Below, one piece after another: positions 9,801 through 13,770 of a stretch of DNA of 64,000 bases. The first letter of the stretch is position 1; the number at the start of each line of letters is the position of its first letter. Made by a program: the position numbers and the translations under genes. The notes below the pieces were generated by a model. The model saw nothing but the letters and a program-made list of their open reading frames with translations, made no database searches and had not been told where the DNA came from. This DNA is from an uncultured Lentisphaerales bacterium (lineage in GTDB: Bacteria > Verrucomicrobiota > Lentisphaeria > JABSQK01 > UBA12247): contig CALSSJ010000013.1 of NCBI GenBank assembly GCA_943788985.1, positions 21,521-85,520 of the forward strand, written 5' to 3'.

Positions 9801-10445
9801 GCGATAGATGGCGCCATGTTGATCCGTGGTAATCAAACGCCCCTTGTCGTCGACGGTCATTCCGACCCAGGAGCCCTCTGTCGCTTTGGGGACCGTGTAC
9901 AGCTTTTCGACTTTGAAGCCGGGCAGTGCTTTGGTCGCGATTGTGCTTGGCGACGGTTTACTGACTGGCGCCGGCGCGCCAGCCTTCCCCCAGACCTTGC
10001 CCCACGGGCCACTGCCGTATGCCCCCTTCTCAACGGCTGCCTGCCACTCGCCTTGCGGCGCCCGCGCCTGCCAGCTCTTGTCCGACACGATTCTCTCTTT
10101 TCCCAGCTGCAACTCGAACAGAAGGCCCGCCAGCGAGCCTTCGTTCTCCGCTTGGACCAGGACCTCGTTCTCGCCTTTCTTGAGAAACTTAGCCACGTTT
10201 AGTTTGGCTGGCTGCTCCCAGTCCTTGGACGCGCAGGCCTGTTTGCCGTTGATGGTCATGGTAAAGGCGTTGTCGCAGGTCGTCATCAACCTGGCCTTCT
10301 TCGGAACCGTGGTCAGGGTGAAGGTTTTGCGGAACTCTACTTTCTCCGCCTTCGCCTTACCCTCTTTCCAGATCCAGTTAGCGGTGTCCGCAACGGCGGC
10401 GTTTGTGATGGCGACAAAAAGAAACAATGCGAGTGATTTATTCAT
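6852..10445 (-). CDS. PVC-type heme-binding protein: signal peptide, beta-sandwich, sorbosone-dehydrogenase-like propeller, HEAT repeats, cytochrome c (CxxCH), DUF1080-like domain
   Basis: CASCH motif, GHGFRNQFD-type propeller motif (CHGFRNQFD), LFNGTDLSGW...QLHAG C-terminal domain, N-terminal signal peptide; 1197 aa. Confidence 0.9.
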   Translation of the reverse strand: MNKSLALFLFVAITNAAVADTANWIWKEGKAKAEKVEFRKTFTLTTVPKKARLMTTCDNAFTMTINGKQACASKDWEQPAKLNVAKFLKKGENEVLVQAENEGSLAGLLFELQLGKERIVSDKSWQARAPQGEWQAAVEKGAYGSGPWGKVWGKAGAPAPVSKPSPSTIATKALPGFKVEKLYTVPKATEGSWVGMTVDDKGRLITTDQHGAIYRVSVTDVVQVEKLNVKTKGGHGALYAFGSLYIMVGEGGQHGLHRLTDTNGDDQYDKEEFLVPINAGGEHGTHSAVLSPDKTSIYLIAGNTSYIPESVTQSRLANAWKEDHLLPRMADGRGHNRGRLAPGGFILKVSPDGKSQELICHGFRNQFDAAFSIDGELFTFDADMEYDIGAPWYRPTRVNHVVSGADWGWRNGTGKWPDYYVDTLPATINIGPGSPSGVSNGLGAKFPAKYQKALFINDWTYGTMYAVHLEPDGASYKATTEEFVSGKPLALTDVVINPGDGHMYFMVGGRRSQSALYRISYVGKESTAPAQAATPTSELQLRRELEALHETGVGEEAIAKAWPQLSHADRFVRYAARVAIEKQPVAQWQSRVATESNSWGIIESTAALARMGSKDQQSTVLAALNKIDYTKAANDLLLGALRAYQLAFTRLGKPSAPDAAAVLAKLDGLFPHHDNFVNRELSQLLLYLDAPKAVSRTVQLILTAPDDEQEKILADSVLARNDRYAAAAKRMESFRPNVQQFALAFSLRSIKTGWTDADHASYFSWYPRAKTWQGGNSFAIFIENARKEALANVTDVAKRAEYDTASSKSLTKPRAISPAKGPGRAWTVDGAVTAVKDNLAGRNFKSGENLFHATACASCHRFAGQGMGIGPDLTGSVNRYTLRDMLENIIEPSKVISDQYGSTHFTMNDGSEIIGRLGTEEDGVAHIMTNPFSPESNVDVELANVKTQKPYPVSSMPPGLVYPLNPDELSDLIAYIYSAGDPEHAYFTKASYQPEMEGAKALFNGTDLSGWKGDPALWSVKDGVIYGTSIGNKLKANTFLVWDGEVGDFHLSFEAKCTGNNSGMMYRSQWLNEADHRLRGYQADIHPNPPYVAMLYAEQLDKRGIVARRGQKVEVGTDGKPKVVGKTCEVTPVKTDEWQTYEIICRGNHMIHKLNGEVAVDIIDNHPNKQLKGLIGMQLHAGPAMECWLRNVRLKEL

Positions 10446-10607
10446 AATGGTCCCTGATGCGATTCCCGCGGTTACGGTTGCGCTTGTTTTAGCTTCAAGG
10501 GCAGCCGCCTGCGCGCGCCACCCCGTCCTTGATTAATTTCCTCCTACCAAAAGCAAGACCCGCGGCTACCGAGGCTACCGGGGGCCGTTCTTACAGCAGC
10601 AGGAAGA

Positions 10608-10757
10608 TCAGACGTTCATCCAAACGCCCATTTTGTGAGCATCGGCGTTGGCTTCCGGGCCCAATAAACCATCACTCGCTTCCAAGGCCGATTCCACGAA
10701 AGGTCTGACCTTGTCTTTGACCGTATTAAAGCCCACGGCTGTGCTACTGTTCCTCAT
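10608..10757 (-). CDS. Unannotated 49-aa peptide MRNSSTAVGFNTVKDKVRPFVESALEASDGLLGPEANADAHKMGVWMNV
   Basis: AGGAGG 7 nt upstream of ATG (10757), TGA at 10608-10610, GC-rich hairpin plus T-run downstream; below the ORF-track length cut-off. Confidence 0.55.
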   Translation of the reverse strand: MRNSSTAVGFNTVKDKVRPFVESALEASDGLLGPEANADAHKMGVWMNV

Positions 10758-10781
10758 GGTTCATCCTCCTGCGGGCCACGA

Positions 10782-10947
10782 TGCCGGGCTCTCGCAGATG
10801 TGTAGTTTATCCCCCAAGAAAGTCTCGGGGGGATACCCTGAACCCTGTTCAAGGGACTGCAAGAGTCTTCAACTATGCAAAAACTGCACAAGCCTAACAG
10901 CTCGACTGAGAATAAAGCCCTTTTGGAGATCGCGCGAGACGGCGGCA
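10782..10947 (-). ncRNA. Candidate 6S RNA-like rod-shaped RNA (~166 nt)
   Basis: Closing stem UGCCG..UCUCGC/GCGAGA..CGGCA. Inner helices UUUAUUCUC/GGGGAUAAA and GAGCU/GGUUC pair fully (via G-U) only on the minus strand. Central CCCUUGAAC-AGG-GUUCAGGG resembles the E. coli 6S 3' bubble motif. Confidence 0.4.
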
Positions 10948-11053
10948 TTGTCTGTTCTTGGACAGAAAATAAACCGGACATCATCGTTGCTAATTTTTCT
11001 GCCCACTATTGGCATTGACGGTCTTGCGTCGCGTTATGTATGTTCCCCGGCCC

Positions 11054-11075
11054 CCTACCGGGCATGCCCGGTAGG
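11054..11075. repeat. Perfect 22-bp palindrome CCTACCGGGCATGCCCGGTAGG
   Basis: Directly self-complementary sequence in an intergenic region. Confidence 0.8.
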
Positions 11076-11397
11076 CTTCCCATCGGCAACAAGTCTCATG
11101 GCTGAACAGCCAGACTCCAGCCTTCGGCCAGATTCGTTAGGCGCTTCCAGTCTCGCCACACGGCAGGGGCCCCTGTAGGGCTGTCGCTTTTTCTTGCCAG
11201 GTACCGGCCAAGCTTGGGGCTAGCCATGCGACTGCCGCAGCGATGGTTGGCGGTGTCGTCGACTGCTGGCGATTGCGCGTGACCTTGATGGAAAGCACCT
11301 TCCGCGCTTGCTCGGTAAAGAAGGTTGAGCAGGACATGGATGGCTTGGTGCGAGCGATCAGGGTGACACTCAACAATCGCGTGCCACGATCCTCACG

Positions 11398-11656
11398 GAG
11401 GCTGGTAACGGGTCAACCTGTCGGCAGTACCTCGTCGGTACGCCTCGACGCGAAAGCCTGACTTGTGTACCTTGAAGTACATCTCGATCCCCCCCAAGTT
11501 GCTTCTGCGTTCAACCCGGGGTTGTATCCCAACCTACGGCGTTGCCCCAAGGTAGGGTGATAATGGGGTTGCCTCGCGGCTGTACCTTCGGGCTCAGTTC
11601 GACCGAGTGCATTAAAGGAGCAGCCCCGAGGAGCCTGTCGGACTTCGACCGGCCTC
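11398..11656. ncRNA. Unidentified multi-hairpin structured RNA candidate
   Basis: Terminal stem GAGGCTGGT/ACCGGCCTC encloses at least six short hairpins (GTACC/GGTAC, TGTAC/GTACA, GGTTG/CAACC, CCTAC/GTAGG, GCC/GGC, CTCAG/CCGAG); no credible ORF. Confidence 0.3.
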
Positions 11657-11696
11657 GTTCCATTTTTCCGCGTAGCTAGGCGCCTCGCAGGCACAG

Positions 11697-11725
11697 AAAG
11701 CCCGGAGCGCATACGCACTCCGGGC
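11697..11725 (-). terminator. Rho-independent terminator of the 11747-12259 gene
   Basis: 8-bp stem GCCCGGAG/CTCCGGGC followed by TTT on the minus strand. Confidence 0.7.
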
Positions 11726-11746
11726 TCGGAGAGGAAGGGAAGGGGA

Positions 11747-12259
11747 TCAGTAGATGCTGGGATATTCCTTGATAGTGATCCACTCGCTGGTGACTTCGGA
11801 CCAGACCTGCATGTAGGCCTTGGCCCCCCGGATCCGCGGCTGGAACAACCGCCGCCCATCTTCGAGCGAGACGACTACCGGACCCTCGGAAAGATCTGGG
11901 ACATAACGTGGTGCAGGCCGTGCAGGAGCCACATACGGTGCGGGAGTGATGCAGGGGGCAGGCCGTGCGGGTTGCGAGACGTAAACGGTTTCGTGCTGGA
12001 CCACGGCGGGCTGCCGGCAGTTGTTGCGAAATGGTGACGAACGATGCCGGTACTCGGTGCGGGTCGAGCGGGTTCTGTGGGTGGCGCGGTGTTGATTGCT
12101 GTCCTGGTGCATCTGGCTGAGGACACTCAAGCCAACGACACCAGCAAGTATCTTTCCGGCGGTCGACCATTCGTCGTTTCCGGCATGGGCGTGTTGGGGA
12201 GTGGCGACTGCGGCGAAGAGTACGAGGGCGAGAACGGATGCTGTGAGATTGCGTGTCAT
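11747..12259 (-). CDS. Secreted hypothetical protein (glycine-zipper-like segment, Pro-rich linker)
   Basis: Signal peptide (..QHAHA), GKILAGVVGLSVL segment, RBS GAGG, downstream terminator. Confidence 0.75.
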   Translation of the reverse strand: MTRNLTASVLALVLFAAVATPQHAHAGNDEWSTAGKILAGVVGLSVLSQMHQDSNQHRATHRTRSTRTEYRHRSSPFRNNCRQPAVVQHETVYVSQPARPAPCITPAPYVAPARPAPRYVPDLSEGPVVVSLEDGRRLFQPRIRGAKAYMQVWSEVTSEWITIKEYPSIY

Positions 12260-12459
12260 TTCGAGGCCTCTTGTTGGGTTCTTGAAGGTCGGTTCACAGG
12301 CCTCTGACGCTCCCCAGGACCAAAGTATTCAACGTCTCAGAAGCTTTTTTGAGATTTTTTTAGTGGCTGATTGCCGCGGTTTGCGGAGTTCGCACAATTT
12401 GCGTGCAAGAATACCGTGCAGGGACAGCTACTTAGCAACACCCAACACGGAGACGAGGT

Positions 12460-13770
12460 ATGGATGACTTTCAGCTCCCTCCCCCTGACGATCGGTCGTT
12501 CCTGAACCGGAAACGACAGGGCGACTACTTCTTACTGATTGTCCTGCTGGTCGCGATCTTCGGCGTATTCTGGATCCTACGGCCGTTTCTGAACGCTATC
12601 CTCATCGCTGCGGTCTCGGCCACGGTCTGTGCCCCTGTGTATTTGGCTCTGGAGAAGAAGTTGAAGGGACGCAAGAGTATTGCCGCCGCGCTCACCTGTG
12701 CGATGGCAACCCTGATCATTCTGGGGCCCGTGGGCGGATTCGCCTATACGCTCGTGGACATGGGAGTCGAGCGGTTCGAACAAGTCGGGACCTGGGTGGA
12801 AGAAGGAAATCTGCAGGAGCTGCCCAAGAACGAGAAGGTAAAGAAGTTTCTAGAGTGGAAGCCAGTTCGCTTTCTCGCCGACCGGCTCGACAGGATGGAC
12901 CTGAGCGAGCTGCAACAATCGGTTGAGAAACTGGGGGATGGCGCGGGCACGCTGCCGGGCGATCCAGACGCCAACGCACCGCCTGCCGGGGACCTAGATG
13001 CGAACGCGCCCCCGATGGCGGCGGTCGGCGACCTGTTTCACATTGACAAGCTCCAAGAGATCGCGCTGTGGGCTGTCAGTGCTGTGGTCAACGCGCTGCA
13101 CGAGCAACTGCTGCCCCTGCTGGCGAATGTCGGCTCGCTGCTCTTTAACTTTATCATCATCCTGTTTGTCATGTTCTACTTTCTCCGGGAAGGAGAGAAT
13201 GTGGTGAAGTTCCTGATGCGCGTGAGCCCGCTTCCCGATGCCTACGAGCGACGCTTGTTCGAGCGAGCTCGCACCATTGTGAGCTCAGCAGTTGTCGGCA
13301 CCGGCCTTACCTCGCTGGCGCAGGGCGTGCTGGGAATGATTGCATTCGCCGTAGTCGGGATTCCGTGGTTTTTCTATGGCGTACTGATGATGATGACGTC
13401 GCTGGTGCCGCTGATTGGTACGGCCCTGGTTTGGCTGCCTTGTGTGGTCTATCTGCTGATTATCGGCGCGACGGGGAAGGCAATTGGTCTGGCGATCTGG
13501 TGTGCCGTGGTGGTTGGCAGTGCGGATAACTTTTTACGGCCGTTCTTTATGAAAGGAGATACTGGGCTGTCCTCCGGCTTGCTGTTCTTTGCGATTATCG
13601 GCGGCGTTCAGGTCTTTGGCCTGATGGGCGTGGTTTACGGGCCATTGATCTTTGGTAGCTGCGCGATCTTACTGCACGTGTATCAGCTGGAGATGGACCG
13701 GGAGGAGCAGTTGGCCTCTGCCTGCGAAGTCGCGCCGCAGGTTCTGCCTGAAGGGACGCCCGATCCATGA
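12460..13770 (+). CDS. AI-2E (PerM/YdiK) family transporter
   Basis: Multi-TM protein with FYFLREG, PLIGTALVWLP, DNFLRP and GVVYGPLI motifs. Confidence 0.9.
   Translation: MDDFQLPPPDDRSFLNRKRQGDYFLLIVLLVAIFGVFWILRPFLNAILIAAVSATVCAPVYLALEKKLKGRKSIAAALTCAMATLIILGPVGGFAYTLVDMGVERFEQVGTWVEEGNLQELPKNEKVKKFLEWKPVRFLADRLDRMDLSELQQSVEKLGDGAGTLPGDPDANAPPAGDLDANAPPMAAVGDLFHIDKLQEIALWAVSAVVNALHEQLLPLLANVGSLLFNFIIILFVMFYFLREGENVVKFLMRVSPLPDAYERRLFERARTIVSSAVVGTGLTSLAQGVLGMIAFAVVGIPWFFYGVLMMMTSLVPLIGTALVWLPCVVYLLIIGATGKAIGLAIWCAVVVGSADNFLRPFFMKGDTGLSSGLLFFAIIGGVQVFGLMGVVYGPLIFGSCAILLHVYQLEMDREEQLASACEVAPQVLPEGTPDP

Follow-up and report, generated by a model that had tools for sequence, protein, structure and literature searches.

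Short open reading frames that lie beside structured RNA are known from several bacterial systems, among them the RNA-plus-ORF transcripts E. coli ssrS-ygfA, SgrS/SgrT and RNAIII/hld. In attenuator leaders such as trpL and tnaC a small ORF is followed closely by a terminator-like hairpin and then by a larger gene on the same strand. Short ORFs can also encode RiPP precursors, and in the streptide precursor StrA a Lys-Trp crosslink is installed by a SPASM radical-SAM enzyme. Finally, ribosome profiling and peptidomics have revealed orphan small proteins of at most 50 aa. Many of the well-studied small proteins are membrane helices.

We analyzed a 49-codon ORF in a stretch of 64,000 nt from an uncultured Lentisphaerales bacterium (the window), and compared it with each of these systems. 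As in SgrS/SgrT, RNAIII/delta-hemolysin, SR1/SR1P and the ssrS (6S)-ygfA pair of E. coli, a structured RNA stretch and a short ORF stand side by side on one strand. Unlike in those dual-function sRNAs, the structured stretch matches nothing in Rfam, is not conserved and folds alike on both strands. The locus shares with trpL and tnaC the small ORF, the close terminator-like hairpin and the larger downstream gene, but the ORF exceeds the typical length of such leaders two- to threefold and contains no run of regulatory codons. It resembles precursors of the StrA type in being small and in having Lys and Trp spaced as K-x3-W close to the C-terminus, but it has no adjacent maturase, protease or exporter, no precursor family, no Cys and no homologs. 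With the orphan small proteins it has in common its size, a strong Shine-Dalgarno (SD) sequence, an intergenic position, the absence of a family and a simple predicted helical fold. It differs from the many well-studied small proteins that are membrane helices in that its peptide is soluble and acidic by prediction, and it is known here from sequence alone. We consider the ORF to be probably (about 0.55) a lineage-specific, or orphan, stand-alone gene that encodes a small soluble helical protein.

An earlier note on this DNA had described a 49-aa ORF behind a perfect AGGAGG ribosome-binding site, and both were confirmed, with their coordinates, on the minus strand (Table 1). The AGGAGG begins 13 nt 5' of the ATG, and the stop codon is the TGA at 10610-10608. 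Since an in-frame TGA lies at 10763-10761, the ATG at 10757 is the earliest possible start. The note had called the gene hidden, but the identical 49-aa protein has already been predicted by public gene callers on 43 contigs from NCBI, JGI, ENA and Logan. In the 1.3-kb stretch around the ORF we found no other coding-like frame, and both flanking genes lie on the same strand. Two further ORFs at the locus, one of 176 aa on the opposite strand and one of 76 aa that overlaps the start of the 49-codon ORF through an ATGA, both score as non-coding and were set aside. A sigma-70 scan did not find a promoter on the minus strand. When transcripts were folded, the SD was largely base-paired in most of the models; its pairing partners vary with the assumed 5' end, and thus we draw no firm inference on how accessible it is.

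Table 1. Positions of the ORF, its signals and its neighbors in the window.
Feature	Position	Strand	Basis or remark
Secreted PVC-type heme-binding CxxCH / DUF1080 protein, 1197 aa	6852..10445	minus	Pfam PF06439, PF00034; NCBIfam TIGR02603, TIGR02604
Long imperfect hairpin, 68 nt, terminator-like	10538..10605	minus	fold of 10536-10612
49-codon ORF, ATG to TGA	10608..10757	minus	ORF list; predicted soluble acidic two-helix peptide
Shine-Dalgarno AGGAGG	10765..10770	minus	read directly; 7-nt spacer to ATG at 10757
Upstream structured stretch, 166 nt; possible 5' leader of the ORF	10782..10947	minus	folding, MFE
Signal-peptide protein, 170 aa, upstream neighbor	12259..11747	minus	separated from the 49-codon ORF by ~1 kb without coding-like frame

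Repeated and symmetrical features were also seen in and around the same region. The window contains 6 copies of the motif CCGGTAGSS where 1.6 are expected, and three of them fall within 550 nt near the ORF (10573-10581, 11053-11076). Among these copies lies a perfect 22-bp palindrome at 11054-11075. A dispersed repeat of ~100 nt is found at ~11500-11630, with weak copies elsewhere in the genome at C5:201135, C37:33104 and C30:2413 as well as on contigs C12 (three) and C15 (two). The arrangement of some copies as inverted pairs points to a REP- or MITE-like element or to a family of small RNAs.

At the local composition, chance ATG-initiated ORFs of at least 49 codons are expected at ~2.3 per kb per strand, so the length of the ORF is by itself no evidence for a gene. 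The codon-usage log-odds of the ORF came to +8.2 bits, the highest of the six frames, a value that lies at the 16th percentile among 50-codon windows of real genes. Of the chance ORFs generated with a second-order Markov model built on the local sequence, only 0.25% reached this value, as did 9.3% of 2,909 "intergenic" ATG-ORFs of 40-99 codons, a set that takes in true small genes such as those for ribosomal proteins. The dicodon score was 0.116, compared with -0.32 to -1.84 in the remaining frames; this corresponds to the 11th percentile of real genes and was matched by 13% of the intergenic small ORFs. The two measures agree, yet both rank low among real genes, and the coding signal is borderline.

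The genome does use SD sites. The 3' end of its 16S rRNA reads GGAUCACCUCCUU, with the canonical CCUCC present, and in long ORFs SD 4-mers are enriched ~10-fold in the interval 9-14 nt ahead of the ATG (~31% of these ORFs). AGGAGG itself is rare, with 1,732 sites in the genome. It begins 10-14 nt upstream of the start in 16 of 1,412 long ORFs (1.1%) against a chance expectation of ~0.1%, and this is the spacing seen before the 49-codon ORF. Among the 2,909 intergenic ATG-ORFs, 6 carry AGGAGG at this distance while ~2.8 are expected by chance. When the pattern AGGAGG-N4-10-ATG followed by a frame of 45-99 codons was counted genome-wide, 32 cases were found, and replacing the ATG with non-start triplets gave between 20 and 51. 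Thus the version with a start codon is no commoner than the versions without one.

The most informative test was to ask for both signals jointly. Three of the six AGGAGG-bearing small ORFs are non-coding by score, and the other three, a Flp-pilin-like gene, a 52-aa ORF and the 49-codon ORF, are coding-like, the 49-codon ORF with the lowest score. Chance is expected to provide at most ~0.2 cases per genome of an optimally placed AGGAGG with a coding-like score, and three were observed, so that the two signals together exceed chance. If a gene is recognized by an SD at functional spacing together with frame-specific codon and dicodon bias, the 49-codon ORF shows both, the bias being at the 11th to 16th percentile. 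The 52-aa ORF (contig C7 of genome G000, 30292-30450, plus strand) looks unannotated, has an AGGAGG 13 nt before its start and scores strongly as coding (codon 0.255, dicodon 0.546), which makes it a more convincing candidate for a small gene than the 49-codon ORF.

The peptide encoded by the ORF has no signal peptide, no hydrophobic segment and no Cys, and its net charge is about -1; that it is non-hydrophobic, as had been noted earlier, therefore stands. AlphaFold run on the single sequence placed helices at residues 5-31 and 33-43 with a mean pLDDT of 68.5, which is of moderate confidence. This suggests that the product, if made, would be a small soluble helical protein.

We found no relatives of the peptide outside its own species. 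A word-indexed search of 5.8 billion clusters returned the identical protein, a T6I variant, a 42-aa form that is shorter at the N-terminus and a deletion allele, and nothing else; no longer form was present among these clusters. No relatives emerged when 1.84 billion representatives were scanned in full with HMMER; the matches were to repeat proteins (TPR, PG-binding and BRCA2 repeats) at E values of 1e-5 to 1e-3. These matches are noise, because several weak stretches (1-7 per protein) sum to the whole-protein score. When 60 genomes from the order and the class were searched by tblastn, no match fell below E = 0.2, and degenerate patterns run against contigs from metagenomes, genomes and viruses likewise gave no relatives. 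Pfam, NCBIfam, PADLOC, PHROGs, the PDB sequences and the ESM Atlas contained zero matches. The 1.3-kb region has no paralog in its own genome and no DNA similarity across genomes of the same order. The 170-aa upstream neighbor does have orthologs in same-order genomes, at 31-43% identity, where the surroundings differ and a related peptide is absent.

The homolog search that had been proposed earlier, with a lack of homologs to count against the peptide, has thus yielded nothing beyond the same species, and in that sense there are none. Since GTDB holds no further genome of the source organism's family, thin sampling contributes to the orphan status, alongside a possible lack of function. With no homolog outside the species there is no evidence of purifying selection on the ORF.

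One likeness was looked at more closely and rejected. Residues 2-44 of the peptide align with every BRC repeat of P0008, a BRCA2-repeat protein of 814 aa, at 34-39% identity and with the common pattern GF-T---K-----ES-L-A---L--E. We judged this likeness to the BRC repeat (Pfam PF00634) to be chance: the peptide has no Pfam match at E<=10, and the database match of E ~1e-4 is in the same range as those to unrelated TPR and PG-binding repeat proteins.

Variants within the species come from public contigs. One metagenome contig found by exact DNA match (L021) is from the same strain, being 99.96% identical across 2.7 kb. Its sole difference is a poly-G tract of G8 where the window has G7 (11488-11494), a length-variable homopolymer in the non-coding upstream stretch. 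A second contig, of 537 nt and encoding the deletion allele (P0002), lacks 113 nt (10685..10573) at a GCCT microhomology. In this allele codon 24 is joined to the hairpin region, and both the C-terminal half of the peptide and the 5' arm of the hairpin are gone. The deletion is either a signal that the ORF is dispensable or an assembly artifact.

The hairpin that had been reported downstream of the ORF is real. It begins 2 nt 3' of the stop codon and has a dG of -34.6 kcal/mol (z = -3.27), and 1 of 200 shuffled sequences was equally stable. A G+C-rich core at 10586-10557 followed by UUGCUUUU gives it the look of a terminator; a simple terminator scan missed it because its stem is bulged. The 3' arm of the hairpin contains a second AGGAGG (10540-10545, minus strand), 225 nt 3' of the first. 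Its AGGAA pairs with the UUCCU right behind the ORF stop, and no usable start codon follows the motif. The next gene downstream on the same strand encodes the 1197-aa heme protein and starts 162 nt past the small ORF and 92 nt past the hairpin. A sigma-70 scan found no separate promoter for this gene. Its product had no match at E<=1e-30 among 14 same-order genomes, and may be lineage-specific or acquired.

The stretch upstream of the ORF is also structured. Its minimum free energy is -61.3 kcal/mol, and it folds better than shuffled sequence on the minus strand (z -2.63) and equally on the plus strand (z -2.67). In the predicted structure a closing helix surrounds a multibranch of four hairpins, where a 6S RNA would form a rod of ~180 nt with a large central bubble, and a terminator-like hairpin with a T-run lies inside it at 10904-10889. 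In a wider context of 343 nt the fold is not significant (z -1.45). The search of 10300-12500 against Rfam gave zero families at E<=10. The 6S model RF00013 found zero matches in this genome, but it also found zero in 61 genomes of the class, this one included. The model may therefore fail to recognize the 6S RNA of this lineage, if there is one, and a diverged 6S RNA at 10947-10782 may have escaped it.

All ORFs of at least 150 aa in window positions 1-22000 were scanned with Pfam and NCBIfam. Within ~10 kb these comprise a DtxR-type repressor, a 989-aa unknown, a GH2-N-like fragment, the PVC heme protein, an AI-2E transporter, XseA, an aldo-keto reductase, an EEP-family protein and a UPF0114 protein. 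The AI-2E family member is the sole transporter in this range and is on the strand opposite to the ORF.

How probable it is that the ORF is translated was estimated from a prior of 5-8% for intergenic small ORFs to be real, and from odds factors of ~3-18 for the coding scores, ~10 for the placed AGGAGG and ~2 for the hairpin past the stop, divided by ~4 for orphan status in a sparsely sampled lineage. This gives a probability of roughly 0.5-0.7 for a translated gene. The earlier claim of a real small gene is thus moderately supported: the position of the ribosome-binding site, the frame-specific bias and the hairpin after the stop favor it, and the lack of homologs outside the species does not. 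Further points against a gene are the low-end coding scores, the deletion allele, the missing sigma-70 promoter, the predicted pairing of the SD and the moderate pLDDT.

The most serious competitor is that the ORF arose by chance in a long structured non-coding region, either the leader of the heme gene or the remains of degraded DNA, with the AGGAGG and the hairpin unrelated to the frame. ORFs of this length are abundant, small ORFs behind AGGAGG are no commoner with a start codon (32) than with other triplets (20-51), and ~2.8 well-placed AGGAGG motifs are expected before intergenic small ORFs in any case. The complete orphan status, the existence of a deletion allele and coding scores within the lowest sixth of real genes fit this explanation as well. 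What argues against it is the joint occurrence of AGGAGG and coding score, seen three times where at most ~0.2 is expected, together with a frame that stands clearly apart from the other five and a hairpin that starts directly past the stop. We therefore regard a chance ORF as possible but distinctly less probable than a gene. A regulatory upstream ORF, or leader peptide, shares the translation step with the small-gene explanation but differs in what translation does: it would modulate the hairpin as a terminator and so control read-through into the 1197-aa heme gene. The argument for it is purely one of geometry. The stop at 10608, the hairpin at 10605-10538 with its U-run and the gene start at 10445 form the layout of an attenuator on a single strand; a ribosome halted at the stop codon would sit on the lower part of the hairpin stem, and the large gene has no separate promoter that we could find. 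However, 49 codons are long for a leader peptide and contain no run of regulatory codons, and with no ortholog of the large gene in 14 same-order genomes there is no conserved leader for comparison. We consider such a role unlikely.

Less likely still is the dicistronic unit that had been proposed earlier, in which a 6S-like or other regulatory RNA at 10947-10782 would be co-transcribed with the peptide gene. The geometry described for it is correct, the 166 nt stopping 11 nt short of the ribosome-binding site where ~12 had been given; they also fold more stably than shuffled sequence (z -2.6), and there are precedents among the known RNA-plus-ORF transcripts. The identification as 6S was not supported: the stretch belongs to no Rfam family at E<=10, it folds as a multibranch without central bubble and just as well on the opposite strand, and it loses significance in its 343-nt context. 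It also has no DNA conservation in same-order genomes, no paralog in the genome, and a terminator-like site within. Equally improbable is an extended version, a single dual-function transcript of the 166-nt element and the ORF whose 3' hairpin would couple translation to read-through into the heme gene. The least probable of all, to the point that we would set it aside, is the earlier suggestion of a RiPP precursor, with a leader and with AHKMGVWMNV as the core on which a radical-SAM enzyme, for instance, would act. In its favor are only the small size of the peptide, its charged N-terminal part and a K-x3-W spacing visible by eye (K42-x3-W46), which is reminiscent of the Lys-Trp crosslink in streptide. 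Against this, precursor families in NCBIfam and Pfam gave zero matches at E<=10, and among the scanned ORFs within ~10 kb there is no radical-SAM enzyme, cyclodehydratase, lanthionine synthetase, other maturase, peptidase or ABC exporter. The co-occurring radical-SAM or other maturase that the earlier note had suggested looking for is thus missing from the neighborhood; the single SPASM radical-SAM gene of the genome is on another contig (C15:30045-30314). The peptide is moreover free of Cys, single-copy and without a family, and has no homologs by which a leader and a core could be defined.

For the orphan small gene, the explanation that we prefer, the following course of events is proposed. 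The strong, optimally spaced SD would drive translation of a 49-residue cytoplasmic peptide, predicted to be acidic, free of Cys and mostly alpha-helical, and the transcript would end, or gain stability, at the long hairpin 2 nt past the stop. The signals in the sequence, the frame-specific bias and the use of SD sites at this spacing are what the analysis shows; translation itself, termination at the hairpin and binding of a partner protein by the product are inferred. By analogy with other small soluble helical proteins, the product would act through such binding and not as an enzyme, a membrane peptide or a modified natural product.

A translated ORF would by itself raise no new question. 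The more useful outcome of this analysis is a negative one, namely that neither the RiPP precursor nor the pairing of a 6S RNA with a peptide should be carried forward for this locus. Since the genome uses SD sites, requiring both a well-placed AGGAGG and a coding score offers a practical way to filter its small ORFs for genes. If the 49-codon ORF is translated, it would add one more taxonomically restricted small protein from a poorly studied PVC lineage, and would be useful for catalogs of small proteins.
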